A DNA stretch of 32,000 nucleotides, from NCBI GenBank assembly GCA_934097105.1, contig CAKONI010000003.1, positions 3,609 through 35,608 on the forward strand, written 5' to 3'. The stretch comes from an uncultured Bacilli bacterium. Its GTDB lineage: Bacteria > Bacillota_I > Bacilli_A > RF39 > UBA660. Below, piece after piece: positions 5,839 to 29,625 of the stretch. The stretch's first letter is position 1. Every line of letters begins with the position of its first letter. The notes beneath the pieces are model-generated. The model saw nothing but the letters and a program-made list of their open reading frames with translations, did not search any database and was not told the origin of the DNA. A program made the translations under genes and the position numbers.

Positions 5839-5841
5839 TTA

Positions 5842-5870: not shown

Positions 5871-5921
5871 GGTATGAAAGTAAATATTTGTATATATAAA
5901 ATTATTGTAGCAAACATTCAT

Positions 5922-5950: not shown

Positions 5951-5980
5951 ATAGCCCAATAAAAAGGATGGTGCGTGTAA

Positions 5981-8397: not shown

Positions 8398-8414
8398 CAC
8401 TCTCTTTCTGTTTA

Positions 8415-8443: not shown

Positions 8444-8471
8444 AAAAAAGATGAAAAATTGTTAATGCAAA

Positions 8472-8491
8472 AGAAAAAGGTCTAATGACCT
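8472..8491 (-). terminator. Short intrinsic terminator after the surface-protein (pseudo)gene
   Basis: AGGTC atta GACCT hairpin (8478-8491) overlapping the stop codon, followed on the minus strand by TTTTTCTTTT. Confidence 0.45.
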
Positions 8492-9741: not shown

Positions 9742-9773
9742 AAAATCTCCTTCTTTCTAAAATTTATATACGT

Positions 9774-9801
9774 ATTATAATAGAAAATTTAATAATATCA
9801 A
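9774..9801 (-). promoter_or_regulatory. Sigma-A promoter for the surface-protein (pseudo)gene
   Basis: Minus strand reads TTGATA (9801-9796), 16-nt spacer, TATAAT (9779-9774). GAAGGAG Shine-Dalgarno precedes the ATG at 9741. Confidence 0.5.
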
Positions 9802-9808
9802 TGAAATT

Positions 9809-9830
9809 TCCAAATGATGCATTGTTTGGA
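9809..9830. promoter_or_regulatory. 22-bp imperfect palindrome, candidate operator between divergent promoters
   Basis: TCCAAAtgATG/CATtgTTTGGA pairs at 9 of 11 positions. It sits 8 nt upstream of the -35 of the HTH-regulator promoter. Confidence 0.3.
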
Positions 9831-9837
9831 GTAAAAA

Positions 9838-9866
9838 TTTACAAATTATAGTACCTATAGTATAAT
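9838..9866 (+). promoter_or_regulatory. Sigma-A promoter for the double-HTH regulator
   Basis: TTTACA (9838-9843), 17-nt spacer, TATAAT (9861-9866), then GGTGA Shine-Dalgarno and ATG at 9884. Confidence 0.6.
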
Positions 9867-9883
9867 ATAGTCTGGTGATACAA

Positions 9884-11596: not shown

Positions 11597-11597
11597 T

Positions 11598-13265
11598 TTA
11601 ATTTCTTTTTTTTAAATTATCCTCTATTTCATCAAAGTATTTATCTAATATATCTATATTGTTATTGAATAGTTCCATAAATTTTAAAATGGTAAATTCT
11701 GCTTTAAAGGTTAGTTTTCCTTCGTAAATATCGCTAAATATTATTTTACTGTCTTGGAATGTTTCTCCTGGCATGACTTTGTAATTACCATGGGAAATGG
11801 AGTTTCTAATTCCTTCGATGATGCTTTTATTTTTTATATATAGTTCTCTGTTATTGTAATATTTAAGTTTATTTTCTAGGTTTTTAATATCCTTTTTTAT
11901 AGTTTCCATGTCATTACATATTTTAATTAAGTTATTTTTAATTGTTGCTTTTGCTTTTTGGTTTTTTGCTTGAGAGATGTTGCAATAGTTATTTAAGTTA
12001 TTGTTATAACGTGCTATAAGAGTTAATAGTCTTTTGTTTAAAGATTTTAGTTTAGTATCTATTTCGGAATAGAAACTGTCATTATTATCATTTTTGATGA
12101 TACTATTATCATCAAATTTTAGTTTGGAGAAATCAAGTCCCTTCCCATCATTGTTTTTATATATTTTTTCTAGAGGAATACTGAAAAGGCTATTAAAGAC
12201 ACTGATAAGGGATGCAACTAGATTATCGTAGTTTATATAAAAACTTCCCCCATATTTTTTTGCTAGGGAATCTACTATAGAATTTAGATTGGTGGAACCA
12301 CTTTTGGAAATTTCTTCAATTATGTAAAGATTGGTAAGATTTGCAAGTAAGGGATTAAATTCATTGTAGGATGATTCTATTTTTCTTTGAACTTCATTTG
12401 TAATGGTTGATACTTGATTGTCGTAGGTGTATCTTTCTTGAGTAAGTATAGTATTTTGGATTAAGGGGATAAGTTCCATAATACTTTTGTACTTGTTCAT
12501 TTTATAATAGTCAGCTTTTAATATATATCCATTTTCTTTATATTCTTTTCTTAAATTTTGTATGCTATTAAAGTCCATATTAGTGGTATTTTTTAATGTA
12601 TTTAGTTTTTTATTGAACTTATCTATTTCATATTTTTCTAGAAAATTGTTATCTTCTCGGGATAAATTAAAGTTAATGTTTGTACAATTGTTTATGACAT
12701 GTTTAATTTCTTCTGTGGATGTGATTTTTTTTGGTTTTTTGTCTTTAGAGATTTCATTTACAGTTATGTTTCTAGAATAGTTTTTAGTTTTTGTATAGAA
12801 AAAGTTATTACGAAGAGATGTGATTATAAATTTGGAAAGTTTATTAATATCGATTGAGATGTTTGTGTTTTCGACGTTAATAATTACTTCTTCTTTATCA
12901 AAATCTATTAAAAAATCTCCATGAGCAATTTTGTTTCTTAAGGTGGCTACGAGAGTTGAGCCATCTTTAAATTCATAGTTATCTATCATATAACCAGATG
13001 CCGTTTTTTCGGAAATTATAGATACACTTTTTTCTAATGAATCATTATATAGTTTGGATTCATAATTTAAGTTTCCGGTATTTTCTACGATATTTTCTTT
13101 AATACTCAAGAATATATTAGAGATTGCTCCCATTTTAGCAGCGCATAAAAACCTTTTTTCTGTTATATAATTTGGATGATTAATTTCATATAGATTATTT
13201 AACATAAAACCTACAAATTCTTTTGTGCCTAAATAATAATTTGCAACAAATTTCAAGTAGTCCAT
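11598..13265 (-). CDS. Single-chain protein with two HEPN-type Rx4H motifs (putative RNase-type toxin or defence effector)
   Basis: 555 aa from the ATG at 13265. Motif 1 is TLRNKIAHGDF (R..H codons at 12921-12938). Motif 2 is GIRNSISHGNY (11790-11807). Both fit R-N-x-I-[AS]-H-G-[DN]-[FY] and lie about 375 residues apart. No signal peptide or TM segment. The TTG at 13310 used by the ORF track is the -35 box of the gene's own promoter. Confidence 0.5.
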   Translation of the reverse strand: MDYLKFVANYYLGTKEFVGFMLNNLYEINHPNYITEKRFLCAAKMGAISNIFLSIKENIVENTGNLNYESKLYNDSLEKSVSIISEKTASGYMIDNYEFKDGSTLVATLRNKIAHGDFLIDFDKEEVIINVENTNISIDINKLSKFIITSLRNNFFYTKTKNYSRNITVNEISKDKKPKKITSTEEIKHVINNCTNINFNLSREDNNFLEKYEIDKFNKKLNTLKNTTNMDFNSIQNLRKEYKENGYILKADYYKMNKYKSIMELIPLIQNTILTQERYTYDNQVSTITNEVQRKIESSYNEFNPLLANLTNLYIIEEISKSGSTNLNSIVDSLAKKYGGSFYINYDNLVASLISVFNSLFSIPLEKIYKNNDGKGLDFSKLKFDDNSIIKNDNNDSFYSEIDTKLKSLNKRLLTLIARYNNNLNNYCNISQAKNQKAKATIKNNLIKICNDMETIKKDIKNLENKLKYYNNRELYIKNKSIIEGIRNSISHGNYKVMPGETFQDSKIIFSDIYEGKLTFKAEFTILKFMELFNNNIDILDKYFDEIEDNLKKRN

Positions 13266-13281
13266 TGATATCACCATCAAG

Positions 13282-13310
13282 ATGATATCATAAAATTGCT
13301 TAGATGACAA
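13282..13310 (-). promoter_or_regulatory. Sigma-A promoter of the dual-HEPN gene
   Basis: Minus strand reads TTGTCA (13310-13305), 17-nt spacer, TATCAT (13287-13282), then GGTGA Shine-Dalgarno (13275-13271) and ATG at 13265. Confidence 0.55.
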
Positions 13311-13330
13311 TCATTTTTCTTTTTTGCATT

Positions 13331-13360
13331 AGAAAAAGTCCAACTTTATTGGACCTTTCT
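13331..13360 (-). terminator. Terminator-like hairpin just upstream of the dual-HEPN promoter
   Basis: Minus strand reads AGAAAGGTCCAA taaag TTGGACTTTTTCT. Core stem is GTCCAA/TTGGAC (13338-13343 with 13349-13354), followed by T5. Confidence 0.45.
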
Positions 13361-13564
13361 AAAACAGTTCTTTCTTGTACTATATAGAAATATATAATAA
13401 ATAAAGAAGTATGAAGATAATATATTTCTTACAGATAAGAAATATAATAAAGAAAGGAGTATCTTAGATGAGAACTAAAAACATCTAAGAACTCAAAATG
13501 AATTATTGTAAACCAAATTGCAAATTTTTTGATTTACATAATAATCATACAACTAAAGATAGTA

Positions 13565-13592
13565 AAAAAATGTCGATATTTGGACATTTTTT
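13565..13592 (-). terminator. Intrinsic terminator of the S8-protease operon
   Basis: Perfect 10-bp inverted repeat AAAAAATGTC / GACATTTTTT with an 8-nt loop. It starts 6 nt after the stop at 13598. Confidence 0.7.
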
Positions 13593-13597
13593 ACTTT

Positions 13598-15262
13598 TTA
13601 TTTTTTTATAAATATTGCTTTTATTTTATGATTTGCTTTTATGTTTTTGAAGGTATATTTTGTAGTTGTTTTTACTTTTTTTCCATCTACGTATAAAGAT
13701 TTTATTTTATATCCTTTGTTAGGTGTAATTTTAATTGTTAAGTTTGTTCCATAATTTACGGTTTTTCCTTTTGTTATATAACCTTTTCCTTCTTTTGTTG
13801 TTGTTATTTTGTATGTGTTAATCATTTTTTTCGCTTTGTTGTAATAGGAATTATATATATTTTTAACTTCTTTTATACTGGTTGCTTTATTTATTTTGTT
13901 AATTCCTTCGTTTACTATTGGTTTTACTTTCTTTTGATTGTATTTTTTATTATTTAAAAATGCTTTTAGATAACCGATATATTTATTTTTAGCGGTTTTT
14001 AGTTCTTGTTTTAAGGTAGGAATGTCTTTGAGTATTCCTTCTAGATTAATAACGAAAAATTCGGAAACTTCAAATTCATAAATGGCATTTTCATAATATT
14101 CTTGGGCTACTTCAAGTATGTATTTAATTCTATAATAATTGTATCCAGAATATTTGCTTGAGTCTAAATAGTTAAGACTTATCTTGTATACTTCATTTTG
14201 AAGTCTTTGTTTGCTGGCATTAGAAAGTTTTTTAAATTTAATACCTGTTACTTTTATTAAATTGTCTTTGGCATTTTCAAATATATTTTCTAATTCACTA
14301 ACGGAATCTGATGAATAAATTTCGGCACAGGCATCATAAAGGATGTCTACTGCTTCTTGGTTTTCTTCTCCTGTTGGTACATAAACACTATAGTAATAAT
14401 AGTCTTGAAGCAAAGAAGTAAAGCTATCTTTTATATCATATACTTCGTTATTGGTATAGATTTTTTTATATAAATCTATATCTCTATATTTATATTCTTT
14501 TCCATTAAGTCTCCATATAATTTCATCATATGTTTCGCTTTCTTCTTGTAGTGTATATTTGTTTTTAGTATTTTTTGGACTAATTCTGTTTGTATGTGCT
14601 TTTGTTTTATCATATTCATAAATAGCGCTATCATAACTAAAATTTAAGTCTACATCAGAAATGTTTTCAGTGAAAATTACAAGTGCTTTGGCATTGGCAT
14701 TTGCTAGGTTTGAATAATCAGAGACGTTATTATAATTATCATAGATTTCTTCTTTTAAACGGTCTATTTTACTTTTGTAATAGTCGTTGTAACCATTAAA
14801 ACTTAAGTTTTCAAAGGCAAGATCTATATTGAGTATTGCTCTTTCTTTTATATCCTCAAAGTTTGTTTTTTCTTTTACAACTTCATAGTTAAAGTCCATT
14901 AGTGATGCTAGGTATAACTGTTTTTGATAAATAGTTTCATTATATTCAATAATTCCGTATGGTAATAGTTCAGTGTCAATTATATCTTCATAAACGACTG
15001 CATTATTTATAGTTTCCATTAATTGATTATAGGAATCATCTATTAGTTTTTTGATTTCATTGGTATATTTGATGTTTTGTGATTCATCATATAGTTCATC
15101 TATTCTTTCACTTAATTTTTGTTTTATATAATCAAGGTTATTATCAACCATAAATGGTCTATAGGTTTTTGATACTAATGGAGTACTTTCTTTGGCGAAG
15201 ACATTAAAGGGAAATATTGTAATTAGAAGTGCAATTACTAGTAATAAACTTAATTTTTTCAT
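13598..15262 (-). CDS. Secreted protein of unknown function with a C-terminal InlB-B-repeat-like beta domain
   Basis: 554 aa. Signal peptide MKKLSLLLVIALLITIFPFNVFA. Long Tyr/Asn/Glu-rich helical region. The last ~70 aa (YKITTTKEGKGYITKGKTVNYGTNLTIKITPNKGYKIKSLYVDGKKV...KIKAIF) resemble Listeria/Bacteroides-type B-repeat domains, judged from memory. The start lies 4 nt after the S8 stop. Confidence 0.5.
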   Translation of the reverse strand: MKKLSLLLVIALLITIFPFNVFAKESTPLVSKTYRPFMVDNNLDYIKQKLSERIDELYDESQNIKYTNEIKKLIDDSYNQLMETINNAVVYEDIIDTELLPYGIIEYNETIYQKQLYLASLMDFNYEVVKEKTNFEDIKERAILNIDLAFENLSFNGYNDYYKSKIDRLKEEIYDNYNNVSDYSNLANANAKALVIFTENISDVDLNFSYDSAIYEYDKTKAHTNRISPKNTKNKYTLQEESETYDEIIWRLNGKEYKYRDIDLYKKIYTNNEVYDIKDSFTSLLQDYYYYSVYVPTGEENQEAVDILYDACAEIYSSDSVSELENIFENAKDNLIKVTGIKFKKLSNASKQRLQNEVYKISLNYLDSSKYSGYNYYRIKYILEVAQEYYENAIYEFEVSEFFVINLEGILKDIPTLKQELKTAKNKYIGYLKAFLNNKKYNQKKVKPIVNEGINKINKATSIKEVKNIYNSYYNKAKKMINTYKITTTKEGKGYITKGKTVNYGTNLTIKITPNKGYKIKSLYVDGKKVKTTTKYTFKNIKANHKIKAIFIKK

Positions 15263-17958: not shown

Positions 17959-19698
17959 TCATAATCTACTATTTTTCTCAGAGAAACTGGACTTTTGTAA
18001 TTCATTTTCTGGTATATTTATAACCTTGCCACCTCTTGGATATAATTGTTTATCCCCAAAAACAATCCATATTATATCAAGATTTTTATTAGGCACTTTA
18101 CCCCAGCCGTCAGTAAAAATGATTTTATTTTCAGTTCGTCTAGAAAAAGCATCAACCGCAACACTAAAATCAGTGCCACCACCACCTAAAAATTCCATAT
18201 CTTCTATATCTTTTTCACTTCTAATATCATTAAAACCATAAAATTTTGTATCAAAGCAACCGACTTTTAACTTAGAGTGTTTTAATATATTTTTACACTC
18301 CATAAGAAAATTACGTAATAATTCTTCATCAATAGAACCACTAGTGTCAAGAACAATTTCAGTCTCTGCAAAAGGTAACTCTTCCAATCTTGGAACTATA
18401 ACCCCATCTTCAATCTCAGCATTTCTGTAAGACCAATCAAGATCATACTTAGTAGCCTCTTTAAGTAAATATCTCCAGTCTAATAAAGGTTTAGATTTTC
18501 CAGATGAGTCAACATCTCTAGTATCACTACTAGTTAAATCACCATAACTCATTGGTTGTGATTCAATTTCCTTTTTTAAATCTTCAAGGGCTTTTTTCTT
18601 TTCTCTTCTATTTTCAGAGAAAGCACCTTTTTCACCCATTTCTTTTATTTTTTTCTTTAGTTCCTCTATACTACTATTTTCAGAATTTTTATCTTCATTT
18701 GAATTTTTTTCATTTTCTTCAAGTTCTTTTAAAGCATCATCCCATAGACTATGAGTATCGTGACCAACATCTTTTCTTTTGTTATTAGATGATTCGGATA
18801 AGTTTGAATTATCTTTTGATCTATTCTCATTTTTGGTTCCATCTTGTGATTTTGAATCTTTATTTTGTGGATCAGAATTCCCATTTTGCGAATTTGAATC
18901 TTTGTTTTGTGAATCAGAATCTCCATTTTGTGATTTTGAATCTTTATTTTGTGGATCAGAATTCACATTTTGTGATTTTGAATTCTTATTTTGTGAATCA
19001 GAATTTTCATCTTGTGAATTTGAGTCTTTGTTTTGTGGATCAGAATTCCCATTTTGTGATTTTGAATCTTTGTTTTGTGAATCAGAATTTTCATCTTGTG
19101 AATTTGAATCTTTGTTTTGTGAATCAGAATCTCCATCTTGTGAATTTGAGTCTTTGTTTTGTGAATCAGAATCTCCATCTTGTGAATTTGAATCTTTGTT
19201 TTGTGAATCAGAATTTTCATCTTGTGAATTTGAATCGTTGTTTGGTGAATCAAAATTTTCATCTTGATTATCATTTTCATTATTACTTTGATTTTGTTTT
19301 TCTTTCTCTTCTTCTATTAATTTGTCATAAAATTCTTCAGCATCATAATTTATAGCATCAGGCATGTCAACCCCATTTGGCATAATTGGAAGGCCATCCC
19401 TTTTCAAAAGTTGGTTTATAACTGCATCAGTTGCAACATTCCAAAAATACCTATCCTTATCTTTACTTCTAGGAACATGATCAAAAGCAATATGACAAAC
19501 TTCATGTGCGAGTACAAAAACTTGCTCATTGGTGTCCAAACTACTTAGAAAATCAGGATTATAATAAATATTTTTACCATTAGTAGACGCAGTGGATATG
19601 TTGTTATCCTCAATATAATTGGTATTAGCAACTATACTACCAAAGAAAGGATATTTAACAAGCATTTTTCTTTTTAAAGCACCAATATCATAACTCAT
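17959..19698 (-). CDS. HExxH putative metallopeptidase domain, Ser/Asp/Asn/Gln repeat linker, VWA-like domain (DUF2201-type architecture)
   Basis: 579 aa. N-terminus has PFFG, LAHEVCHIAFDH (HEVCH codons at 19492-19506) and NVATDAVIN. The C-terminus has the MIDAS-like motif VLDTSGSI (18334-18348), GGGTDF and IFTDGWG. About 150 aa of 14-aa repeats lie between the two domains. Confidence 0.75.
   Translation of the reverse strand: MSYDIGALKRKMLVKYPFFGSIVANTNYIEDNNISTASTNGKNIYYNPDFLSSLDTNEQVFVLAHEVCHIAFDHVPRSKDKDRYFWNVATDAVINQLLKRDGLPIMPNGVDMPDAINYDAEEFYDKLIEEEKEKQNQSNNENDNQDENFDSPNNDSNSQDENSDSQNKDSNSQDGDSDSQNKDSNSQDGDSDSQNKDSNSQDENSDSQNKDSKSQNGNSDPQNKDSNSQDENSDSQNKNSKSQNVNSDPQNKDSKSQNGDSDSQNKDSNSQNGNSDPQNKDSKSQDGTKNENRSKDNSNLSESSNNKRKDVGHDTHSLWDDALKELEENEKNSNEDKNSENSSIEELKKKIKEMGEKGAFSENRREKKKALEDLKKEIESQPMSYGDLTSSDTRDVDSSGKSKPLLDWRYLLKEATKYDLDWSYRNAEIEDGVIVPRLEELPFAETEIVLDTSGSIDEELLRNFLMECKNILKHSKLKVGCFDTKFYGFNDIRSEKDIEDMEFLGGGGTDFSVAVDAFSRRTENKIIFTDGWGKVPNKNLDIIWIVFGDKQLYPRGGKVINIPENELQKSSFSEKNSRL
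18823..19266 (-). repeat. In-frame 42-nt tandem repeat (21-nt sub-period), about 10.5 copies
   Basis: The unit TTGTGAATCAGAATTTTCATCTTGTGAATTTGAATCTTTGTT recurs with few substitutions. It encodes DS(N/K)SQ(D/N)(E/G)(N/D)SD(S/P)QNK. No stop codons occur in several frames, which explains the stacked ORFs in the track. Confidence 0.9.
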
Positions 19699-19702
19699 AG
19701 TA

Positions 19703-20077
19703 TTATTCCTTTATATGTGCTACTAACGAATAAATTTCTTCATTAATAGTATTTTTGTTTATTTCATTTGCCGTAATGATTATTACACAATTTTTTGGTA
19801 ACTCTAAAGTCCCTACTTTTCTATATTTCAATAATTCTAAAAACTTGACTTGTTCATCCTTTGAAATAGAATCTATTCTATCTATTACTAACAATTTCGC
19901 ATCACTATTACTTTTTATTAGTCTAAACCATTCAGGTTCATTTATATCTAATAACTCTTCACTACTTACATCTGCTGAAATAACAACACTGTCAGGTATA
20001 TCAAAAAGAAAATCTTCCAAAATAGGCGCTACATTATTACTTATATATGTTGATAATAACTCTCTCTTTTCTTTCAT
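19703..20077 (-). CDS. Small P-loop-less AAA+-like protein (Walker-B and sensor-1 half only)
   Basis: 124 aa. KLLVIDRIDSISKDEQVKFLELLKYRKVGTLELPKNCVIIITAN aligns with KLHIVFLDELTNALPSIQGIAFNIVLDKEVNGIWKLPSNARIVAAGN of the upstream ATPase. No GxxxxGK[ST] motif is present, and DE is replaced by DR. The start overlaps the upstream stop (TAATG). The stop lies 4 nt before the next start. Confidence 0.5.
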   Translation of the reverse strand: MKEKRELLSTYISNNVAPILEDFLFDIPDSVVISADVSSEELLDINEPEWFRLIKSNSDAKLLVIDRIDSISKDEQVKFLELLKYRKVGTLELPKNCVIIITANEINKNTINEEIYSLVAHIKE

Positions 20078-22038
20078 TATTTTCTCACTCCATTTTCCAT
20101 ATTAGATTCCAAAATCTTTTCCATTTTTTCTTCATCACCATGACACCACAAAGCATCAAAAATCTTTCTAAACTCTGGCCCCATTTCAAAAGCAAAATTT
20201 CTTGCTTTACTAAGATTTTCATCATCTACTCTAGAAAGACCCATCACTGTAGCATATCTTTCTGAGGTATTAAGCATTTCGATATCTCCCTTACTATAAT
20301 TATCATTTAGCACATCTTCAAGTGTTATAACCCTTTGTCTACAAAATGCTACGAATTCTTTTGTTATCTCTTCTCCAACTAAACTTCTTAACATCTCAGG
20401 ATTCTCTGTACTATAAAGCATTTTTGATGCCATTTCCCATTTCCTAGGATCAGCATTTGGTTTCTCACCATCATACTCACTTCTTAATACTTTATCTCTT
20501 TTAAATGCTATAAATGAATAAATTGCTGGATGTATATTATGCGTACTTGCCCACTTTAGCCAGTTTTCTACTGTTGTTTTTATATAAACATGTGCAAATC
20601 TATTAAACAAAGGCTCTGCCATTTGATTTGCTGCCAAACTATCTTTCATATCATTTCCCGCTGCCACTATTCTAGCGTTTGATGGAAGTTTCCAAATTCC
20701 ATTTACTTCTTTATCTAAAACAATGTTAAATGCTATACCTTGAATACTAGGAAGTGCATTAGTAAGTTCATCTAGAAATACTATATGTAACTTATCGGGT
20801 TCATTCTCACATTTTTCATTTATCTTTTTAAGCCAAGATGGCATAACATCTATCATCTCACCAGTTGTAGCATTATATACACTTTTACCATTTAAACTTT
20901 CTGGTGTAGCATTACGAAGATATATAATTACACAATCAGAATCAAATTGCTTAACTCTAGCACTCTTTCCCTCAGAAGAAGCCCCATGCAAAAATACTGG
21001 AATATCACTGTCAATTGCACCTTTGATCATTTCTTCCTCACTTATCTTATTAAAGTTAAGGTTATATGGATTCCTCATTCTTTCTCTCCTTTTTTCATTT
21101 TCTTTTTTCATTTTTTCATTTTCTTTTTTCATTTTTTCTATTTCTTCTCTTTGCATTTTAAAATTTTCTTTAGCTTGCTCCATTTCTTCATTTGTTAGTT
21201 CTTCATCACCACTCTCTTGTTCTTTTTTCTCTTTTAAATAATCATCAAAAGACATTGTTTCTCCAGAAACTTTTGTTATCTCATTTGAAGGTATTATTTC
21301 ATTAATGAAATATCTATTTAAATACATTTTCACATCACTATTTTGATAGTTGTTTCTGATGCTATCTACTTTTATTCCTGATACTAATACATCTTTGCTT
21401 ATAAAATTATTTTCATTTTCATCGTAAATCCACTTTATTGGTGAAACTGAAAACCATATATAATTATACGAATCAGCAGATTCTCCATTAGAAAAAATAG
21501 CTTTTCTTGATTTAGAATTTGGAACTACTCTTATATACTTTTTACCATCAAATTCATATTCAGAATAATAGTCAGGTAAAAAACCATCACAATCATCAAA
21601 TTGAGTTGAGTCCACTGTATAAGACTTATTTGTTTTTGCCAAGCTACCATTTTGATAAGAAAACTCTAAAAAATCATTCAAATAACCATCAACTATTTCT
21701 TGAGGATATTCTCCATATGAAACTTCCTTAAGACCATCAACCATCGAAATATTAGCCTCATCATCAGGTATATTTGATATGACAGGTCTAATTCCACAAT
21801 AACCTTGATTATCATGAAGATTCGTAAAAGATCCTTCTAAACTATGAACCCAGTCATACTCTTTATTTTTATTCAAAGTAAGATAAAAACTTGTGCGAAA
21901 TTTATCGCCATATGTAAACTCTTTAATACCAAGAAATCTAGCAAAATCAGAAGTATTGCTTTCCTTATTTACCATTTTCCTTATAAAGTCTGACCCTCCT
22001 TGTTTCTCGTTAGGTAAACTAATTTCAATATTATTCAT
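20077..22038 (-). CDS. MoxR-like (AAA_5-type) ATPase with an N-terminal ~250-aa extra domain and a Glu/Lys coiled-coil linker
   Basis: 653 aa. Walker A is HGASSEGKS (20962-20985), Walker B is HIVFLDELT, and sensor-1 is RIVAAGN. The N-terminal region carries YGEYPQ, GIRPV, IKWIYDE and SDVKMYLNRYF, which I recall from DUF6273-type Firmicutes modules (unverified). AAGAGGTG Shine-Dalgarno precedes the start. Confidence 0.7.
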   Translation of the reverse strand: MNNIEISLPNEKQGGSDFIRKMVNKESNTSDFARFLGIKEFTYGDKFRTSFYLTLNKNKEYDWVHSLEGSFTNLHDNQGYCGIRPVISNIPDDEANISMVDGLKEVSYGEYPQEIVDGYLNDFLEFSYQNGSLAKTNKSYTVDSTQFDDCDGFLPDYYSEYEFDGKKYIRVVPNSKSRKAIFSNGESADSYNYIWFSVSPIKWIYDENENNFISKDVLVSGIKVDSIRNNYQNSDVKMYLNRYFINEIIPSNEITKVSGETMSFDDYLKEKKEQESGDEELTNEEMEQAKENFKMQREEIEKMKKENEKMKKENEKRRERMRNPYNLNFNKISEEEMIKGAIDSDIPVFLHGASSEGKSARVKQFDSDCVIIYLRNATPESLNGKSVYNATTGEMIDVMPSWLKKINEKCENEPDKLHIVFLDELTNALPSIQGIAFNIVLDKEVNGIWKLPSNARIVAAGNDMKDSLAANQMAEPLFNRFAHVYIKTTVENWLKWASTHNIHPAIYSFIAFKRDKVLRSEYDGEKPNADPRKWEMASKMLYSTENPEMLRSLVGEEITKEFVAFCRQRVITLEDVLNDNYSKGDIEMLNTSERYATVMGLSRVDDENLSKARNFAFEMGPEFRKIFDALWCHGDEEKMEKILESNMENGVRK

Positions 22039-23451: not shown

Positions 23452-23481
23452 AAAAAAAATACAGTATTAAAACTGTATTTT
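23452..23481 (-). terminator. Intrinsic terminator ending the paralogue operon
   Basis: Perfect 10-bp stem AAAATACAGT / ACTGTATTTT (23456-65 with 23472-81) and a 6-nt loop. T8 follows on the minus strand. The hairpin overlaps the stop of the small gene. Confidence 0.75.
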
Positions 23482-23731
23482 ATAAATATTTTTCTAAAAG
23501 TTGTTGGAACTGAGGAAGAAGAACTTGTAATAGATTTGGATCTACTACTTTTTCTAGTGTTCCATCTTCATAGTGAACAACCATTACTTTGTATACATCT
23601 GTAACATCAGATTCATCAGGTAATATTTCATTGACGTAAACGTATTCGTTTCCTTCATATTTTAATGCTTCTAGTACCACAACTTTGTCATTTTCTTCAA
23701 ATGTTATGACATCATATCTTTTAAAAGTCAT
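23480..23731 (-). CDS. Small acidic protein, DUF1292-like
   Basis: 83 aa. The pattern DVITFEENDKVVVLEALKYEGNEYVYVNEI...VMVVHYEDGTLEKV resembles the YrzB/DUF1292 beta-rich layout, but only loosely. GGGGAG Shine-Dalgarno; the start lies 13 nt after the upstream stop. Confidence 0.35.
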   Translation of the reverse strand: MTFKRYDVITFEENDKVVVLEALKYEGNEYVYVNEILPDESDVTDVYKVMVVHYEDGTLEKVVDPNLLQVLLPQFQQLLEKYL

Positions 23732-23744
23732 ATTTCTCCCCTTT

Positions 23745-24902
23745 CTATCTACTATACCCCATAGTTTGATTTTGAATACTTTCGTAAGTTGGTTCTACAA
23801 CTGGATTTACGGTAACTCCTTCATTTAATTCACCTGCTAAAGAATTAATCTCTGCTTCTGAGATTCTTTTTTCTTCATTAATTGTTTCTGTATTACTTGA
23901 ACTAGAAAATTTTGCTTTAATTTTTTCTATTCTATTTTTTAATCCTTCTTTAATTCTGGTTATAAAACTAACTTTTTTTCTTTTTTCAGGAGTTAAATGA
24001 TTCTTTATATAATCCATTTGATACAATACATCTTGCATTTTATTTGGTTCTTGTGTTTGGTTATTTGAAATGTTGTTTGCTCTTAAGTTATCAGATAAAT
24101 TTGGAATGTCTGCTACTTCATTTTCGTTTGTTTTTAATACTATGTTTTCTTGTGGGACAGGACCATTGACTACTCTATAGTTAAATTTATCATTACTAAC
24201 TGTATGAATTCTTGCCTGTCTAAGTTCAGACTTTACTTCTGGACTATTTTCTTTTTCAGTAGGTTTTTGCTCTTCTGGTTTATTTTCTTTTACAACAGGT
24301 TCTTGCTCTTCTGGTGTATTTTCTTTTACAACAGGTTCTTGCTCTTCTGGTTTATTTTCTTTTTCAGTAGGTTTTTGCTCTTCTGGTTTATTTTCTTTTA
24401 CAATAGGTTCTTGCTTTTCTGGTTCGTTTTCTCTTTCAACAGTTTTTTCTTCTTCTGGTGTATTTTCCTTTTCGATGGGTTTTTGTTCTATTTCTAGAAC
24501 TCCTCTTTTTGAAAGCCTTTTCATTGATTTTAGAGCAAAGTTTATACGAAATTCAAGTTGTTCAATGTCAAAAGCAATCCTTTCTTTTTCTCTATCATTA
24601 GCAGGCTCTTTTTCTTTTAGCATTTCTTTTTCAGTATTATATGTATTGTAGTAATCATAGTAATACATAAGTTCAGTTACATAATGGTTTTCTGTTATAT
24701 AGTTATCATATTCCATTTCGCTTTTACCTAAAGCTGCTGAAACTGGTCCGATAACGTCTATTCCTTTTTCCCATTCTTTACTTTTTACTGCGTCAACTGC
24801 TTTTTGTGCATATTCAACCTCAAGTTTTTTTAATCTTTCTTCTACTTTGAATGAAACAATTTCTAAATTAACTAGTTTTAAAAATTCATTAATATTTTCC
24901 AT
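23745..24902 (-). CDS. Paralogue family member P3 (shared N-terminal module, 36-nt acidic repeats, unique C-terminus)
   Basis: 385 aa. N-terminus (INEFLKLVNLEIVSFKV...EVEYAQKAVD...W.KG...KEPANDREK...) is homologous to the N-termini of P1 and P2. No signal peptide or TM segment. Confidence 0.6.
   Translation of the reverse strand: MENINEFLKLVNLEIVSFKVEERLKKLEVEYAQKAVDAVKSKEWEKGIDVIGPVSAALGKSEMEYDNYITENHYVTELMYYYDYYNTYNTEKEMLKEKEPANDREKERIAFDIEQLEFRINFALKSMKRLSKRGVLEIEQKPIEKENTPEEEKTVERENEPEKQEPIVKENKPEEQKPTEKENKPEEQEPVVKENTPEEQEPVVKENKPEEQKPTEKENSPEVKSELRQARIHTVSNDKFNYRVVNGPVPQENIVLKTNENEVADIPNLSDNLRANNISNNQTQEPNKMQDVLYQMDYIKNHLTPEKRKKVSFITRIKEGLKNRIEKIKAKFSSSSNTETINEEKRISEAEINSLAGELNEGVTVNPVVEPTYESIQNQTMGYSR
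24231..24482 (-). repeat. In-frame 36-nt tandem repeat, about 7 copies
   Basis: TTTTCTTTTACAACAGGTTCTTGCTCTTCTGGT(G/T)TA units encode KEN(K/T)PEEQ(K/E)P(T/V)(E/V). Confidence 0.85.
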
Positions 24903-24917
24903 AATTTATCCTCCATC

Positions 24918-25796
24918 TTAAAGTTTTTTTCCAGAACTGTAATGTTTATAGGCTATACCAGCCAATGGTGCTACTACAAATACTGGGTTTGCAATTACAA
25001 GGGCTGCAGTTATAGCCCCTAGCGCTACTATTGCAGCGACTGTTTTTGAATTAATTTTGCTATTTAGGGTTGGTCCTGCTACTCCCATTTTTTTCGCTGT
25101 TTTCTTTTCAGGTTTTAATGTATTGTCCTCTTTTTGTTCTTCTGGTTTAGTAGCAGTTCCTGTAGAAGTATCTTTTTTTTGTTCAGGTTCTTTTTCTTCT
25201 TGATTTTCTTTTTCCTCATCTTGTTTTTCTTCATCCTGTTTTGCTTCGTCTTGTTTCGTTTCATTTTGATTTTCGTTATTTTTTTCTTTGTTTTCTGTTA
25301 TTTCATTATCATCAGTATTACTTATACTATTTGCTTTGTTTTCTTTTTCTTGATCTTTTTTATTTTCTAAATCATCGGTATTGAATCTACTTCTATTTTT
25401 AGTTAATGATTTTAGTCTTTTAATTATGAAATTTTGCCTATTTTTAAGTTCTTCAATACTAAATTCATTTCTTGATTTTTCTCTGTCATTAGCAGGTTCT
25501 TTTGCAAGTAATGCTTTTAGTTTTTTTTCGTGTTCTTGATATTCTGCATAGTATTTTTTCATTTCTTCTACTTCTTTGTTTTGTGTTATATATTCATCTA
25601 AATCTTGTTGTTTCTCTTCAAGTTTTTGTTCAAATATTTTGATAGCCTCTGAGCCTTTATCCCATTTTACATTTTTAACCTGATCTAGGTCTTTTTGTGC
25701 ATATTCAATCTCAACTTCTTTTAGTTTTTTGTCCACTTTGTATGAAGTTATATCTAAATTAACTTTTTTTAAAAATGCTTCTAAGTCGTTATTCAT
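24918..25796 (-). CDS. Paralogue family member P2 (shared N-terminal module, acidic region, C-terminal TM tail anchor)
   Basis: 292 aa from the ATG at 25796 (MNNDLEAFLKKVNLDITSY), chosen by homology to the P1 and P3 starts. KQDE(A/E) repeats. C-terminal hydrophobic stretch TVAAIVALGAITAALVIANPVFVVAPLAGIAY. Confidence 0.6.
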   Translation of the reverse strand: MNNDLEAFLKKVNLDITSYKVDKKLKEVEIEYAQKDLDQVKNVKWDKGSEAIKIFEQKLEEKQQDLDEYITQNKEVEEMKKYYAEYQEHEKKLKALLAKEPANDREKSRNEFSIEELKNRQNFIIKRLKSLTKNRSRFNTDDLENKKDQEKENKANSISNTDDNEITENKEKNNENQNETKQDEAKQDEEKQDEEKENQEEKEPEQKKDTSTGTATKPEEQKEDNTLKPEKKTAKKMGVAGPTLNSKINSKTVAAIVALGAITAALVIANPVFVVAPLAGIAYKHYSSGKKL

Positions 25797-25827
25797 AGGA
25801 TCCATCGCCCCTTTCAATTACTTGCAT

Positions 25828-25856
25828 ATTATATCACAAAATCATAAATTTTACAA
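25828..25856 (-). promoter_or_regulatory. Sigma-A promoter with extended -10 for P2-P3-small gene
   Basis: Minus strand reads TTGTAA (25856-25851), 17-nt spacer, TGa-TATAAT (-10 at 25833-25828). Confidence 0.55.
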
Positions 25857-25912
25857 GTCTAATGTCAAAAAATCATATTGATTCAAAAATTAAGTGAATA
25901 TATTTTTAATTA

Positions 25913-28345
25913 TTACCTTGATCTACCTGTACTTATTTCGTTATCATATAGCATTTCTTCGTATTCTAACATTTTTTCTCTTTCTTTATATGGTACTCTT
26001 GCCATTGTTTTCTTTTTGCCTATTTCTTTGTCAACAACACTGCAATATGCCATTGTAGCACCAGTACTTATTACTGTTGTTAATAGGTCACTGCCAAGTC
26101 CATCAAGTTGAGGAACTTCTGTAGTTTTCAATATTTCGCCATCTTTGTAGACTTCAAGTATTCCATTATTAAATTTGGTTACGGCGTCAGGATTTTTTAT
26201 TATGTAGTCCATTGAATCAACAGTTGAAGATAAGTCAAATTGAGGATTATTTGCTTGGTATTCTCTTAATTGTTCTATTGCGTTTTCATATAATTTAGTT
26301 TGGTTTTTGTTTACTTCACTTGCAACTTCAGCAATTTTATTTAAGTATTCACTATCGCTTATCCTTTTATCTTTTAGGTCATTCACAGCATCAGTAAACT
26401 GTGAATTCATGCTTTCTATTTCATTATGTGAAGTTTGATGATTAATTTTGTCTGCAGCCCAATAATCGGTACTATTCATATCGTAAGTGTGTCCATCTAA
26501 TGTTGCTGCTTGTCTTTCTCTTATATCAACGGCTCCTGCTTGATTAGCATATGAATTTGCTGTCATACCTTTACCAAAGTCATCTCTTTTTGATGTGATA
26601 TCATTTCCTATAGAATGTATTTGATCTTCTACATCATTTAATTTTTGATTTATTTCTGCAACTAAGTTTGGATTGTCTATTAAGTGTGTAACGATTCCGT
26701 GTATAGATGAAACTGCAGCTGTTCCAAGAGCAATTGTACCCATAATGTCTCTGATATGTGTGTCTTGACTATAATCAAGTAATGTTGCCATTGGTGTATA
26801 ACTTCTTTTGCCTGTTGAAACTTCTCCTACAAATCTTTTTTTGTCGTATGATGTGTTTTCTGCTTCAAGTCTTTGTCTTTCAATGAATGAACTTACTGCT
26901 AATTCGTCATTTCCTTCTTCGATTGCTTTTTTAAAGTCTGCTGATAAAATCGCTTCTTGATCCATAAGCTTTTGATCATTTCCATGTTTTACAGCATCAG
27001 CATATCCGACATAGTTCATTCCTTTTCCGATAGTAGTTGCCCTTACTATTTCTTCAAAGCCATGGCTTCCGCCACCTATATAATAATTTGCTTGGTCTTG
27101 ATTACTAGTAAACTCTTTTAAAAGTTCTGCTTTTCCGTCATATAAATTTGCTCTTTCTCCTTCAAGTTGTATTCTTTTTTCTTCAGTTAAATCTCCTTCT
27201 AATTCTTTGTTTATTCCTTCAATAAGTAAGTAATCACCGGCGATTTTAGAGAAAATTTTCTTGTTTGTCATGTTTAAAGCATCTATTTTTTCTTGGCAGT
27301 ATTTTTTCATTCTATTTACAATTGGTGCTGTGAATGCTTCCGGATACATTGATTGTTTGAAGAATGACGCTGTTCCATCTTTTAAAATTGTTTCTAAGTC
27401 TTTTTCTGGTAAATTATTAAGTCTTTCTTTTAAACTATTTATTTTGTCTATTTGTTCTTGTTTTACTGTTAACCCACGTATATTACAGACAATCTTATTC
27501 ATCATTGTTCTAAAACTTTTACTGACCCCTGCAATATTATATTTTAGATTTCCAGTATGAACGTTTTTTTCAAATTCATCCCTTATTTTTATTTTTCTTA
27601 ATGTTAGTTTATTATAAGCCCTTTTATCTTTTACCTTGAAATCAAGTCCTCTATTTAATTCAGCCATGATGACTTCTATTGTCCTAGGTCTTGATTGTAG
27701 ATCTTTTTCAATTTCACTTTCTGGATCTTCTATTTCAGGATCATCTCTTTCTGGATTATCCTTTTCCGGATCATCTCTTTCTGGATTATCCTTTTCCGGA
27801 TCATCTCTTTCTGGATCATCCTTTTCCGGATTATCTCTTTCTGGATCATCCTTTTCTGGATTATCTCTTTTTGGATCATCCTTTTCAGGTTCTTCCTTTT
27901 TTGGATTTTCTTTTTCTAGATCATCAGTGTTAAATAAACTTCTGTTTTTTGTTAATGCCCTTAATCTTTCTATTATAAATTTTTGTTTAAATTTAAGTTC
28001 TTCAATACTAAACTCATTTCTTGATTTTTCATTAGCATTAGCAGGTTCTTTTTCAAGTAATGCTTTTAATTTTTTTTCACATTCTTGATATTCTGCATAG
28101 TACTTCTTTATTTCATCCATTTCTTTATTTTCATATAAGAAATCCTCTAAGTCTTTTTGCTTATTTGCAAGCACCTCTTCTAGTACTTGAACAATGTTTG
28201 ATCCTCTTTCCCATGTGTGCTCTTTTGTGGCGTCTACATCTTTTTGTGCATATTCAATGTCAGCAAGTTTAAGTGTTCTGGTTGTTTCATAAGAAACTAT
28301 GTCTAGATTGACTCTTTTTAAAAATGCTTCTAATTCAGTATTCAT
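25913..28345 (-). CDS. Paralogue family member P1 (shared N-terminal module, pentapeptide acidic repeats, ~590-aa unique C-terminal region)
   Basis: 810 aa. N-terminus MNTELEAFLKRVNLDIVSY...IEYAQKDVD...W.RGS...YYAEYQECEKKLKALLEKEPANANEKSRNEFSIEELK. I do not recognise the C-terminal region. Hydrophobic patches are IMGTIALGTAAVSSIHGIV and LLTTVISTGATMAYCSVV. Confidence 0.6.
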   Translation of the reverse strand: MNTELEAFLKRVNLDIVSYETTRTLKLADIEYAQKDVDATKEHTWERGSNIVQVLEEVLANKQKDLEDFLYENKEMDEIKKYYAEYQECEKKLKALLEKEPANANEKSRNEFSIEELKFKQKFIIERLRALTKNRSLFNTDDLEKENPKKEEPEKDDPKRDNPEKDDPERDNPEKDDPERDDPEKDNPERDDPEKDNPERDDPEIEDPESEIEKDLQSRPRTIEVIMAELNRGLDFKVKDKRAYNKLTLRKIKIRDEFEKNVHTGNLKYNIAGVSKSFRTMMNKIVCNIRGLTVKQEQIDKINSLKERLNNLPEKDLETILKDGTASFFKQSMYPEAFTAPIVNRMKKYCQEKIDALNMTNKKIFSKIAGDYLLIEGINKELEGDLTEEKRIQLEGERANLYDGKAELLKEFTSNQDQANYYIGGGSHGFEEIVRATTIGKGMNYVGYADAVKHGNDQKLMDQEAILSADFKKAIEEGNDELAVSSFIERQRLEAENTSYDKKRFVGEVSTGKRSYTPMATLLDYSQDTHIRDIMGTIALGTAAVSSIHGIVTHLIDNPNLVAEINQKLNDVEDQIHSIGNDITSKRDDFGKGMTANSYANQAGAVDIRERQAATLDGHTYDMNSTDYWAADKINHQTSHNEIESMNSQFTDAVNDLKDKRISDSEYLNKIAEVASEVNKNQTKLYENAIEQLREYQANNPQFDLSSTVDSMDYIIKNPDAVTKFNNGILEVYKDGEILKTTEVPQLDGLGSDLLTTVISTGATMAYCSVVDKEIGKKKTMARVPYKEREKMLEYEEMLYDNEISTGRSR
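27716..27916 (-). repeat. In-frame 15/30-nt tandem repeat, about 13 pentapeptide units
   Basis: GGATCATCTCTTTCT / GGATTATCCTTTTCC alternate and encode (E/K/R)(K/R)D(D/N)P units (PEKDDPERDNPEKDDPERDDPEKDNPERDDP...). Confidence 0.85.
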
Positions 28346-28346
28346 C

Positions 28347-28613
28347 TTACTTTTTTCCGCCTTGGTTTAATATATCTAAAGCACTGTTAGCTAGTTCAAA
28401 TTCTTCAGGTGTTTCAATCATGTATAGTTCTCCTGTGAATTCATTTGTTGGATAACACGCAAAAAGAACTTTTCCTTCATTATTAACTATTTTATCATCT
28501 GTAAATCCTACATATGTTTTTCCATTTTCAGGGCAATCAAATGTTAAAACTACTTTATAAACAATATCTCCTTCATCTGTTTGAATAACTACTCTTTCAT
28601 CTTCTAACTTCAT
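28347..28613 (-). CDS. DUF1292 (YrzB-like) small protein
   Basis: 88 aa. VVIQTDEGDIVYKVVLTFDCPENGKTYVGFTDD...ELYMIETPEEFELANSALD matches my recollection of the DUF1292 pattern (short beta N-terminus, .YV.. core, acidic C-terminal helix). The stop lies 1 nt before the P1 start. Confidence 0.55.
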   Translation of the reverse strand: MKLEDERVVIQTDEGDIVYKVVLTFDCPENGKTYVGFTDDKIVNNEGKVLFACYPTNEFTGELYMIETPEEFELANSALDILNQGGKK

Positions 28614-28635: not shown

Positions 28636-28664
28636 ATTTTAAGTTAAAAAGAAAAAAATGTCAA
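28636..28664 (-). promoter_or_regulatory. Sigma-A promoter for DUF1292-P1
   Basis: Minus strand reads TTGACA (28664-28659), 17-nt spacer, TAAAAT (28641-28636). TAGGAGGA Shine-Dalgarno precedes the ATG at 28613. The -35 lies in the 3' arm of the uppS terminator. Confidence 0.5.
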
Positions 28665-28712
28665 ATAAAACTCGCCATTTGGCTTGTTTTTCTTTAGTAC
28701 TTGACATTTTTT
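28653..28712 (-). terminator. uppS terminator candidate (long-loop hairpin)
   Basis: 12-bp perfect arms AAAAAATGTCAA (28653-64) and TTGACATTTTTT (28701-12). The 36-nt loop has inner AAAAC/GTTTT and GCC/GGC pairings. A T-run follows on the minus strand. Confidence 0.4.
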
Positions 28713-29415
28713 ATTCGGTTATTCCTCCGAATCTTCTGTTACGTTTGTAGTATTCGTCTAGAATTTTATTAAATTTTGAGGGGGTAAAATCTGGAAACAA
28801 AGTACTTGTAAAGCAAAATTCTGCATAAGATATTTGAAAAAGTAGAAAATTACTTATTCTCATTTCTCCGCTTGTTCTTATAAGAAAATCAACATCAGGA
28901 AGTTTATTATAAAGATTATCTGAGATTAGTTTTTCATTTATGTCATCTATACTTATTTCGCCTTTTAGAAGTGAGGCTCCTATTTTTTTAGTGGCATCTA
29001 CTATTTCACTTTTTCCACCATAATTTAAGCAGAAGTTGGCTACTAAGCCTGTGTTACTACTAGTATCATCTTCAAGGTGTTTCATACTTTTTAGTACTTC
29101 TTCTGATAGGCCTTCTTTTCTTCCTGAAAAGATAATTTTAATATTTTCATTTTTATATTTTTTATTTACTCTTGTGAACATCTTAATAAATAGATTCATT
29201 AAATAGTCTACTTCTTCTTTACTTCTTTTAAAATTTTCTGTTGAGAAGACATATAGACTTAAATATTTTATGTTTGTATTTTTATTTGTGTATAAAATAA
29301 GTTTTTCAAGTGTTTTTGATCCTTTTAGGTGACCGGCACTTCTGGAAAGGCCTCTTTTTTTTGCCCATCTGCCGTTTCCGTCTACTATTATGGCAACGTG
29401 TTTTAGTTCATTCAT
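28711..29415 (-). CDS. uppS: Undecaprenyl pyrophosphate synthase
   Basis: HVAIIVDGNGRWAKKRGL, FSTENF.RS.EEV, RTSGE.R.SNFLL.Q.SYAE, RRFGG. Start reassigned to MNELKH (ATG at 29415, AGGAG Shine-Dalgarno). The 56 upstream codons of the ORF track are read through two tRNA genes. Confidence 0.9.
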   Translation of the reverse strand: MNELKHVAIIVDGNGRWAKKRGLSRSAGHLKGSKTLEKLILYTNKNTNIKYLSLYVFSTENFKRSKEEVDYLMNLFIKMFTRVNKKYKNENIKIIFSGRKEGLSEEVLKSMKHLEDDTSSNTGLVANFCLNYGGKSEIVDATKKIGASLLKGEISIDDINEKLISDNLYNKLPDVDFLIRTSGEMRISNFLLFQISYAEFCFTSTLFPDFTPSKFNKILDEYYKRNRRFGGITE

Positions 29416-29427
29416 AAATTTACTCCT

Positions 29428-29457
29428 AAAAAAAACTCTTAGATAAATCCAAGAGTA
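29428..29457 (-). terminator. Weak terminator between tRNA-Pro and uppS
   Basis: ACTCTT / AAGAGT 6-bp stem (29451-56 with 29435-40) and a 10-nt loop. T8 follows on the minus strand and runs directly into the uppS Shine-Dalgarno. Confidence 0.35.
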
Positions 29458-29467
29458 ATATTCAAAC

Positions 29468-29544
29468 TGGTCGGGAAGACAGGATTTGAACCTGCAACCC
29501 CTTGGTCCCAAACCAAGTGCTCTACCAAGTTGAGCCACTTCCCG
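29468..29544 (-). tRNA. tRNA-Pro (anticodon TGG)
   Basis: 77 nt with encoded CCA. Acceptor stem CGGGAAG/CTTCCCG. Anticodon arm CTTGG-TTTGGGA-CCAAG. T-arm GGTTCAAATCC. Confidence 0.95.
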
Positions 29545-29548
29545 AAGA

Positions 29549-29625
<77 letters not shown>

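Follow-up and report, generated by a model that had tools for sequence, protein, structure and literature searches.

A conserved gene pair and a duplicated helical head in a possible membrane-anchored scaffold cluster of an uncultured Bacilli bacterium

The window analysed here is a stretch of 32,000 nucleotides (nt) of chromosomal DNA from an uncultured Bacilli bacterium (GenBank assembly GCA_934097105.1, contig CAKONI010000003.1, positions 3,609 to 35,608), a low-GC (about 29%) spore former, and the subject of this study is a cluster of five minus-strand genes, named S1, P1, P2, P3 and S2. The core of the cluster appears to be a two-gene module in which a small acidic protein of the DUF1292 family (S1) accompanies a large all-helical protein (P1), and the 5' part of P1 appears to have been duplicated twice, in this lineage only, to give P2 and P3. 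We suggest that the three large proteins constitute a membrane-anchored scaffold displaying one shared cytoplasmic head, a reading to which we assign a probability of about 40%; the account of how the cluster evolved has good support, unlike the mechanism.

The five open reading frames (ORFs) lie where a first-pass annotation of the window had placed them, and signal peptides are absent, as it had also stated for P1, P2 and P3:

28347-28613, minus strand: S1, 88 amino acids (aa), acidic, net charge -10
25913-28345, minus strand: P1, 810 aa, all-helical; N-terminal module (N-module), acidic proline-rich repeats and conserved C-terminal domain (C-domain)
24918-25796, minus strand: P2, 292 aa from the ATG at 25796; N-module, acidic K/E/N/Q-rich spacer and C-terminal transmembrane (TM) tail anchor
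23745-24902, minus strand: P3, 385 aa; N-module, 12-aa acidic repeat and polar tail of 157 aa with no hydrophobic segment
23480-23731, minus strand: S2, 83 aa, acidic, net charge -10

The longest possible ORF for P2 begins at a TTG (25817). Intergenic gaps are 1 nt between S1 and P1, 116 nt between P1 and P2, 15 nt between P2 and P3 and 13 nt between P3 and S2. Because of the 1-nt gap, S1 and P1 are probably translationally coupled. The base composition of the cluster is that of its surroundings.

The conserved part of P1

The part of P1 that defines a family is its C-terminal region:

25913-27700, minus strand: P1 C-domain, residues 216-810, about 590 aa

With full-length P1 as the query, a word-indexed database of 5.8 billion proteins returned only a near-identical orthologue, a poor yield that may be due to acidic-repeat candidates flooding the list. 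Residues 216-810 alone retrieved proteins of 864-1016 aa with 24-45% identity over more than 90% of the query, and a scan of GTDB genomes with the C-domain gave 13 loci, labelled mostly as uncultured Bacilli, Bacillales or Bacillota metagenome-assembled genomes (MAGs) and in several cases merely as 'bacterium'. The C-domain family is present in about 10 lineages of uncultured gut Bacilli. The P1-like proteins of the GTDB loci are 868-2297 aa in length, with unrelated and often repetitive N-terminal regions, and only their last ~590 aa align; an alignment of the C-domain (A9) contains 18 invariant columns, including PQFD. No match to the C-domain was found in Pfam, NCBIfam or PDB. Its structure model consists of helices throughout and is poor (pLDDT 48), which makes the fold search uninformative: Foldseek of this model against PDB gave nothing at E <= 0.001. 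A DUF1292 domain fused within the long P1-like proteins was looked for and none was found. A GGSHG motif of P1 was considered as a nucleophile elbow of the GxSxG type and was rejected, since its Ser and His are not conserved in the proteins P0005 and P0010 and the fold is all-helical.

A closer relative, at the locus L020, retains the synteny of the window, with spoIIIAH, a gerE-like gene, gerM, uppS, an 88-aa gene and an 864-aa gene. Amino-acid identity between the two loci is 63% for uppS, 55% for gerM, 45% for the P1 C-domain, 34% for S1 and 25% (E 0.05) for the P1 N-module. The L020 N-module scores 17.7 bits against a hidden Markov model of the module and E 0.003 in hhalign, and is recognisable only because it occupies the same position. 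This suggests that the C-domain and the DUF1292 protein are old and that the N-terminal head is the fast-evolving part of the system. With a conserved C-domain and a variable N-terminus across species, the pattern is the inverse of the constant N-terminus with variable C-termini that the first-pass annotation had assumed. At none of the 14 other loci does a neighbouring gene share the N-terminus of the local P1-like protein.

Pairing of P1-like genes with a DUF1292 gene

A gene of about 90 aa is located upstream of the P1-like gene, 12-17 nt away or overlapping it by 4 nt, in 12 of the 12 GTDB loci with upstream DNA, and the same arrangement is found in metagenome contigs L002-L004 and in L020. 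S1 is homologous to all 12 of the syntenic proteins compared (BLASTP E 4e-4 to 3e-9). In an alignment of 12 sequences (A6), 11 match the DUF1292 profile PF06949 (all except S1; best E 8e-11), whereas S1 alone has no Pfam match and reaches E 2e-4, below the cut-off, with the PRK13678 models of NCBIfam. By transitive homology, S1 can be classed as a divergent member of the DUF1292/UPF0473 family (PF06949). S2 aligns with positions 8-75 of the 75 in PF06949 but stays below threshold, at E 0.067 and 14.5 bits where 24 are required; it has no NCBIfam match and no detectable similarity to S1 or to a profile of the S1 subfamily. The earlier picture of a cluster bracketed by two DUF1292-like genes is therefore upheld on the S1 side, and S2 is possibly DUF1292-like.

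What had been missed earlier is that the DUF1292 gene tracks the C-domain of P1 and not the shared N-module. Conservation beyond the strain accordingly differs between parts of the cluster: the three-paralogue arrangement occurs in this species only and the S1-P1 pair is conserved more widely. S1 resembles DUF1292/UPF0473 proteins of the Bacillus subtilis YrzB type in its length (~90 aa), its acidity and its 'LFTF...Y.GYTD' core. The well-known DUF1292 copy sits with ireB and ruvX. In contrast, the paralogues of the window and of about 10 other lineages are each coupled to a large helical protein. A search of the literature on DUF1292, UPF0473 and yrzB found no functional study, and a sequence search found no solved DUF1292 structure.

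The neighbourhoods of P1-like genes elsewhere include genes of wall synthesis and division. In L002 a class-B penicillin-binding protein (PBP) gene with ftsL and mraZ adjoins the P1-like gene (mraZ-rsmH-ftsL-pbp), and in L011 and L016 a class-B PBP gene lies downstream of it. In a clade of MAGs (L002, positions 6299-9647, and the upstream regions of L005, L006, L009, L011, L012, L014 and L016), the DUF1292 and P1-like pair is preceded by conserved genes of no assigned role, which encode an N-terminally anchored protein of ~450 aa, a protein of 150-200 aa with a Lys-rich N-terminus and a TM segment, and an anchored protein of ~180 aa with weak CARDB, DUF11 or Ig-like matches. The window holds no homologue of these membrane proteins. 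Taken with uppS in the window, the class-B PBP, ftsL/mraZ and bitopic-protein neighbours provide weak context for an envelope-related function of the complex. One of the loci, L007 (CAVKYO010000013.1), is binned as Acidaminococcus fermentans, yet it has the DUF1292, P1-like and ackA arrangement of the 'Bacilli' MAG loci and a DUF1292 protein identical to theirs; it is probably mis-binned.

The shared N-terminal module

The features of the N-terminal parts are as follows, with the tandem arrays as called by Tandem Repeats Finder:

27926-28345, minus strand: P1 N-module, residues 1-140, four-helix bundle (AlphaFold2)
27717-27925, minus strand: P1 acidic proline-rich repeat, period 30 nt, 7 copies, 'PEKDDPERDN'; copy number varies among alleles
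25189-25274, minus strand: P2 repeat, period 15 nt, 5.7 copies, weak
24236-24489, minus strand: P3 acidic repeat, period 36 nt, 7 copies of a 12-aa unit

P1, P2 and P3 share an N-module of ~140 aa. Identity in the module is 63% over 154 aa between P1 and P2 (E 7e-59), 34% between P1 and P3 (E 1e-25) and 37% between P2 and P3 (E 1e-30), and all four motif blocks on which the proposal of paralogy had been founded are present in the alignment. Past the module and the acidic spacers, the C-termini of the three proteins show no significant mutual similarity. The further claim, that each protein carries a different acidic tandem repeat, stands for P1 and P3, the P2 array being weak. Antisense to the acidic repeats, the plus strand has long ORFs with a high content of Phe, Leu and Ser (24150-24497, 25134-25370, 27636-28088 and 27691-27933); these are mirror artefacts of the repeats and not genes.

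AlphaFold2 predicts the N-module as four helices (residues 3-41, 51-72, 76-98 and 104-133) with a pLDDT of 88 and a pTM of 0.75. Foldseek of the N-module against PDB and BFVD found nothing at E <= 0.001, the hits being generic BAR-like or PA28-like helical bundles at E >= 0.2. A profile built from the three modules and run with HMMER on 1.84 billion representative proteins gave three matches, which are the orthologues of P1, P2 and P3, and neither the word-indexed search nor the GTDB genome DNA scan found relatives of the N-module beyond this species' own genes. Searches of P1-P3 against Pfam, NCBIfam, PHROGs and PADLOC returned nothing significant; PHROGs and PADLOC gave weak low-complexity matches alone, the best (E 6.5e-4) over the acidic spacer of P2. 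Searched against PDB sequences, P1, the C-domain and the profiles of the N-module and of A9 gave only chance or coiled-coil matches (MapZ, E 0.13; coronavirus HR1, E 0.018). The N-module and the P1 C-domain thus appear to be families without any Pfam, NCBIfam or PDB relative, and are new in this weak sense alone. The first-pass annotation, which knew of no described function and proposed profile and structure searches of the N-module and of the P1 C-terminus, is borne out here: those searches matched no well-characterised family, and P1, P2 and P3 belong to no described one.

P2 and P3 look like lineage-specific partial duplicates of the 5' part of P1, comprising the module and the first stretch of the spacer. 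The last residues of P1 and P3 alike are '...G(R/Y)SR' (25913-25930 and 23745-23760), and the P2 anchor 'IVALGAITAALVIANPVFV' resembles the first hydrophobic patch of P1 (patch 1, below) together with its 'LIDNPNLV' continuation. Such likenesses hint at an origin of P2 and P3 from a full-length P1-like gene by internal deletion, the segments being too short and compositionally simple to say more.

Downstream of the P1 orthologue of L020 with 45% identity (positions 8590-8786 of that locus) there is a promoter resembling the P2 promoter of the window (TTGTAA...TGTTATAAT), with a ribosome-binding site. The ORF that follows starts with 'MNYDISEIREF' (compare 'MDYDFTTINNF' in the P1 of L020) and meets a stop codon in frame after 25 codons, where the contig also ends; at E 0.38 the similarity falls short of significance. 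This ORF could be a P2-like paralogue or a pseudogene.

Alleles, selection and gene conversion

Four alleles of the whole cluster or of part of it are available from independent assemblies (L018, L001, L019 and L021), with about 88-100% aa identity. L018 equals the window over 14 genes, apart from one substitution in P3, 13 in the most distal gene, which encodes a DUF2201 protein (98.8% aa identity), and the repeat numbers. P1 is 810 aa in length in the window, 800 aa in L018 and L001 and 795 aa in L021; P3 is 385 aa in the window, 373 aa in L018 and 361 and 357 aa in other alleles. Differences of this kind represent either true length polymorphism or the collapse of repeats in short-read assembly.

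The ratio of nonsynonymous to synonymous change (dN/dS), computed against L021, is 0.33 for P1, 0.40 for P2 and 0.30 for P3, with 0.5-0.8 in the acidic spacers and 0.03-0.07 in uppS, ftsY and ylxM. S2 has no nonsynonymous and three synonymous changes relative to L021, and its protein is identical in all alleles. These ratios indicate that P1, P2 and P3 are real genes under purifying but relaxed selection.

Two alleles carry mosaic P2 modules. In L021, residues ~17-75 of the P2 module are of P1 type ('IVSYETTKTLK'), and synonymous divergence (dS) rises there to 0.37 from the 0.04-0.06 of the remaining gene, and in L001 a patch identical to P1 ('NRSLFNTDDLE') replaces the P2 sequence of the window. 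The mosaics point to gene conversion between P1 and P2, in the following region:

25377-25796 and 27926-28345, minus strand: P1/P2 N-module conversion region (3486-3900 in L021; 3692-4147 in L001)

Membrane topology

Hydropathy (KD19) gives three segments of interest:

24954-25046, minus strand: P2 TM tail anchor, about residues 251-281
26678-26746, minus strand: P1 patch 1, residues 534-556, IMGTIALGTAAVSSIHGIVTHLI, KD19 1.58, candidate TM helix 1
26033-26086, minus strand: P1 patch 2, residues 754-771, KD19 1.22, candidate TM helix 2, followed by a basic tail

The tail of P2 has its sole peak (2.29) at residues 256-274, a clear TM segment, and its N-terminus is charged and helical. P2 is therefore predicted to be a tail-anchored membrane protein, with a single TM segment in the last ~40 residues and no signal peptide. 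No hydrophobic segment is seen in the hydropathy profile of P3. The TM tail of P2 and the polar tail of P3 are thus as first described, and the two hydrophobic patches attributed to P1 are present with borderline values; patch 1 belongs to a conserved 'RDLFTTxAV...' segment. In 14 homologues, the K+R content of the P1 C-domain is 15.9% in the ~310 aa before patch 1, 5.9% in the ~200 aa between the patches and 14.2% in the tail after patch 2, while D+E is flat across the three segments. All 14 show this pattern. It is plausible that P1 passes the membrane twice, with its N-terminus inside, the loop outside and the C-terminus inside, as the positive-inside rule predicts.

Such a topology leads to the question whether P1 could be an envelope-spanning sensor or surface protein, whose outside domain of ~200 aa is the functional part (as a receptor, an adhesin or a phage-exposed target), with P2 and P3 acting as decoys or regulators in competition for whatever the head binds in the cytoplasm. 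In favour of this are the charge pattern, which supports a helical loop outside the cytoplasm, and the fast evolution and gene conversion, as would suit an interface under diversifying pressure; the neighbours in the MAG clade are bitopic proteins with Ig-like or CARDB-like outside domains. However, dN/dS of the putative outside loop is 0.39 as compared with 0.5-0.8 in the spacers, it is the N-module that diverges most between species, and no signalling output domain is seen. This explanation overlaps the membrane-anchored scaffold that we favour and does not exclude it; as an account of what the proteins are for, we consider it unlikely.

Promoters and terminator

The transcription signals of the cluster are the following:

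28636-28664, minus strand: sigma-A-type promoter-like site upstream of S1, TTGACA-17-TAAAAT, 11 of 12 positions matching
25828-25868, minus strand: two overlapping sigma-A-type promoter-like sites upstream of P2 (promoter scan)
23452-23481, minus strand: intrinsic terminator, 10-bp AT-rich stem followed by U8, -11.6 kcal/mol, z = -4.2

The sites upstream of P2 are TTGACA-16-TATGAT (25868-25841) and TTGTAA-17-TATAAT with an upstream TG (25856-25828), so that P2 and P3 have a strong promoter of their own in addition to ribosome-binding sites. The intergenic region between P1 and P2 contains no terminator and no stable fold. The terminal hairpin is missed by the terminator scan because its stem is AT-rich, and none of 200 shuffled sequences folds equally well. 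Promoter scan and hairpin folding agree with the earlier description, in which the genes sit closely together under two promoters and share one terminator; the promoters are sigma-A-like and appear to be of the housekeeping type.

This bears on the possibility that the cluster encodes structural proteins of the spore coat or spore surface, synthesised by the mother cell for assembly onto the forespore. spoIVA, spoIIIAH, gerM and a sigma factor are present in the same window, and the proteins resemble orphans, are acidic, contain repeats in varying numbers and evolve fast, traits that are typical of coat proteins, for example CotG and SpoVID. With these two they also have in common their restriction to a lineage, charged tandem repeats, the lack of signal peptides and a host that forms spores. 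In contrast to what would be expected of coat genes, both promoter regions (of S1 and of P2) have near-consensus sigma-A hexamers and neither has a -10 element of the CATA type used by sigE/sigK; P2 has a true TM anchor, P1 has a positive-inside charge pattern, and elsewhere the S1-P1 pair adjoins division and wall genes (mraZ-rsmH-ftsL-pbp) or housekeeping genes and not sporulation genes. A coat function is thus improbable.

A membrane-anchored scaffold

We therefore return to the scaffold. In this proposal, the C-terminal part of P1 would consist of a K/R-rich helical domain of ~320 aa, a weakly hydrophobic helix of small residues, a K/R-poor helical segment of ~200 aa, another helix of that kind and, at the end, a short basic stretch. 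P2, with its tail anchor, and P3, with its polar tail, would derive from the 5' part of P1; gene conversion would keep the modules of P1 and P2 alike, and S2, the second small acidic protein, would close the operon. P1, P2 and P3 would share one four-helix head, held out into the cytoplasm on acidic tethers that are flexible and differ in length between strains. Because the head is the same and two of the three proteins would be anchored in the membrane, it is possible that the heads bind a common partner or one another and so form a membrane-proximal scaffold. S1 may be a dedicated binding partner or chaperone of the P1 C-domain, and expression would be from housekeeping-type promoters. The first-pass annotation had mentioned a membrane-associated scaffold family as one option, with which the data are compatible.

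Several observations weigh against this proposal. Rich in Ala, Thr, Ser and Gly, the patches of P1 are weakly hydrophobic and do not reach the threshold usual for TM segments, and in several homologues there are charged residues within patch 2; for these reasons P1 could be soluble. The K+R pattern is significant in a paired Wilcoxon test (p about 1e-4) on sequences that are not independent. S2 follows P3, which is without the P1 C-domain, so that a simple rule by which DUF1292 proteins bind the C-domain leaves S2 unexplained. The differences in repeat number, and with them the strain-variable tethers, could in part be artefacts of short-read assembly. The genome is in view over 32-37 kb, and partner genes may lie elsewhere in it. 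The searches returned no informative homology, and the scaffold role, the interaction of S1 with P1 and an oligomerisation of the N-module are putative.

Among known systems, the nearest in architecture are MapZ, RodZ and EzrA, bitopic or tail-anchored scaffolds of division and morphogenesis with disordered linkers. Like them, the proteins described here would combine a helical head in the cytoplasm with a charged linker of low complexity and an anchor in the membrane, and their genes have envelope genes as neighbours (uppS here; ftsL and class-B PBP genes elsewhere); they have no sequence or fold relationship with these scaffolds, and the likeness is architectural only. Pfam profiles for EzrA, DivIVA, GpsB, MapZ, SepF and the Mycoplasma APR (acidic proline-rich) and EAGR domains gave no match, and the PDB sequence match to the MapZ extracellular domain (E 0.13) is non-significant. 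Mycoplasma, of a related bacterial class, has the cytoskeletal proteins HMW1, P65 and P200, which possess an APR domain. Acidic proline-rich tandem repeats in cytoplasmic structural proteins are the point of resemblance; it is compositional only, and the cluster has no match to the EAGR box or to any other profile.

It has also to be considered that P2 and P3 might be decaying, functionless remnants of partial P1 duplications and that S1-P1 alone matters, since both occur in this lineage only, lack the conserved C-domain and have spacers with a high dN/dS (0.8); yet their ORFs are intact in 4 of 4 alleles, dN/dS is 0.30-0.40 overall and 0.16-0.32 in the N-modules, the TM anchor of P2 is conserved, and promoter and ribosome-binding sites are in place, which renders decay very unlikely.

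Equally poor are the prospects of the polymorphic-toxin or secretion-substrate cassette (for example like the LXG substrates of type VIIb secretion, T7SSb), the analogy drawn in the first-pass annotation, in which the N-module would serve in trafficking, the C-termini would be effectors and S1 and S2 chaperones or immunity proteins. Within this genome the helical N-terminus is indeed constant, the C-termini differ, small acidic genes adjoin the large ones, the genes evolve fast and the loop that joins helices 1 and 2 of the elongated bundle contains a W-x-x-G motif. However, P1, P2, P3, S1 and S2 have no match to an LXG, WXG100, toxin, immunity or defence profile, and the search for an N-terminal trafficking domain gave no Pfam or NCBIfam match at E <= 1; fold searches of PDB and BFVD gave nothing significant and no toxin fold. 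Conservation between species runs in the reverse direction (in L020, 45% in the C-domain and 25% in the N-module), the C-terminus of P2 is a mere TM anchor, and the DUF1292 partner lies upstream of P1 and tracks its C-domain. No secretion ATPase and no other secretion, phage or plasmid gene is present among the genes of the 32-kb window, in keeping with the earlier remark that no secretion genes were visible, nor is there a secretion system in the 37-kb contig L018. A tblastn search with P1 of phage and plasmid collections found no match, and PHROGs, PADLOC and BFVD likewise lend no significant support to a phage or defence identity. A toxin-immunity or secretion-substrate cassette would look different.

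Other features of the window

The order of genes around the cluster is spoIIIAH, a gerE-like gene, gerM, tRNA-Arg and tRNA-Pro, uppS, the cluster, ftsY and ylxM, with spoIVA, mutS and a sigma factor beyond. An Rfam scan found the two tRNAs and nothing else. These tRNAs, tRNA-Pro(TGG) and tRNA-Arg(TCT), are located immediately upstream of uppS; tRNAs and uppS together occupy 29468-29625 and 28711-29583, both on the minus strand. A mechanically called uppS ORF of 290 aa, beginning with GTG, overruns both of them; the real uppS is ~234 aa in length and starts near 29415, according to the calls in L018, L001 and L020.

Downstream of ylxM, positions 17959-22038 of the minus strand hold a three-gene module that is conserved in L018. 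Its members are a protein of 653 aa with a Walker-A-like 'GASSEGKS' and no Pfam match, a protein of 124 aa without a match and a DUF2201 metallopeptidase/VWA-like protein of 579 aa; the module looks like an unannotated ATPase-VWA system.

The region 4420-15262 has a lower GC content (0.23-0.27) and shifts in GC skew, and is interleaved with spoIVA. It contains a Fic-domain protein (5981-6904), proteins of 472 and 570 aa of no assigned role, a helix-turn-helix (HTH) protein of the XRE type of 573 aa (9875-11596) and a Flg_new_2 repeat protein (13598-15262), and may be variable surface or accessory content.

Implications

On a small scale, the locus cleanly illustrates duplication at the level of domains, together with concerted evolution and polymorphism of repeat length, in uncultured gut bacteria. 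Should the cluster prove to encode an ordinary set of structural proteins, its practical value would be better annotation only. DUF1292/UPF0473 is a widespread Gram-positive family of small proteins, and its strictly conserved and apparently translationally coupled pairing with a large protein that probably spans the membrane offers a concrete candidate partner for it. A bolder view, which we hold to be doubtful, is that S1-P1 lies at the heart of an apparatus, so far undescribed, that spans the envelope of gut Bacilli. A two-pass helical membrane protein with a link to wall synthesis or division would there have the DUF1292 protein as its obligate partner in the cytoplasm, and in this species P2 and P3 would be additional interchangeable cytoplasmic heads whose binding specificity is kept identical by gene conversion. 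If this were true, it would provide the first functional context for the DUF1292/UPF0473 family.

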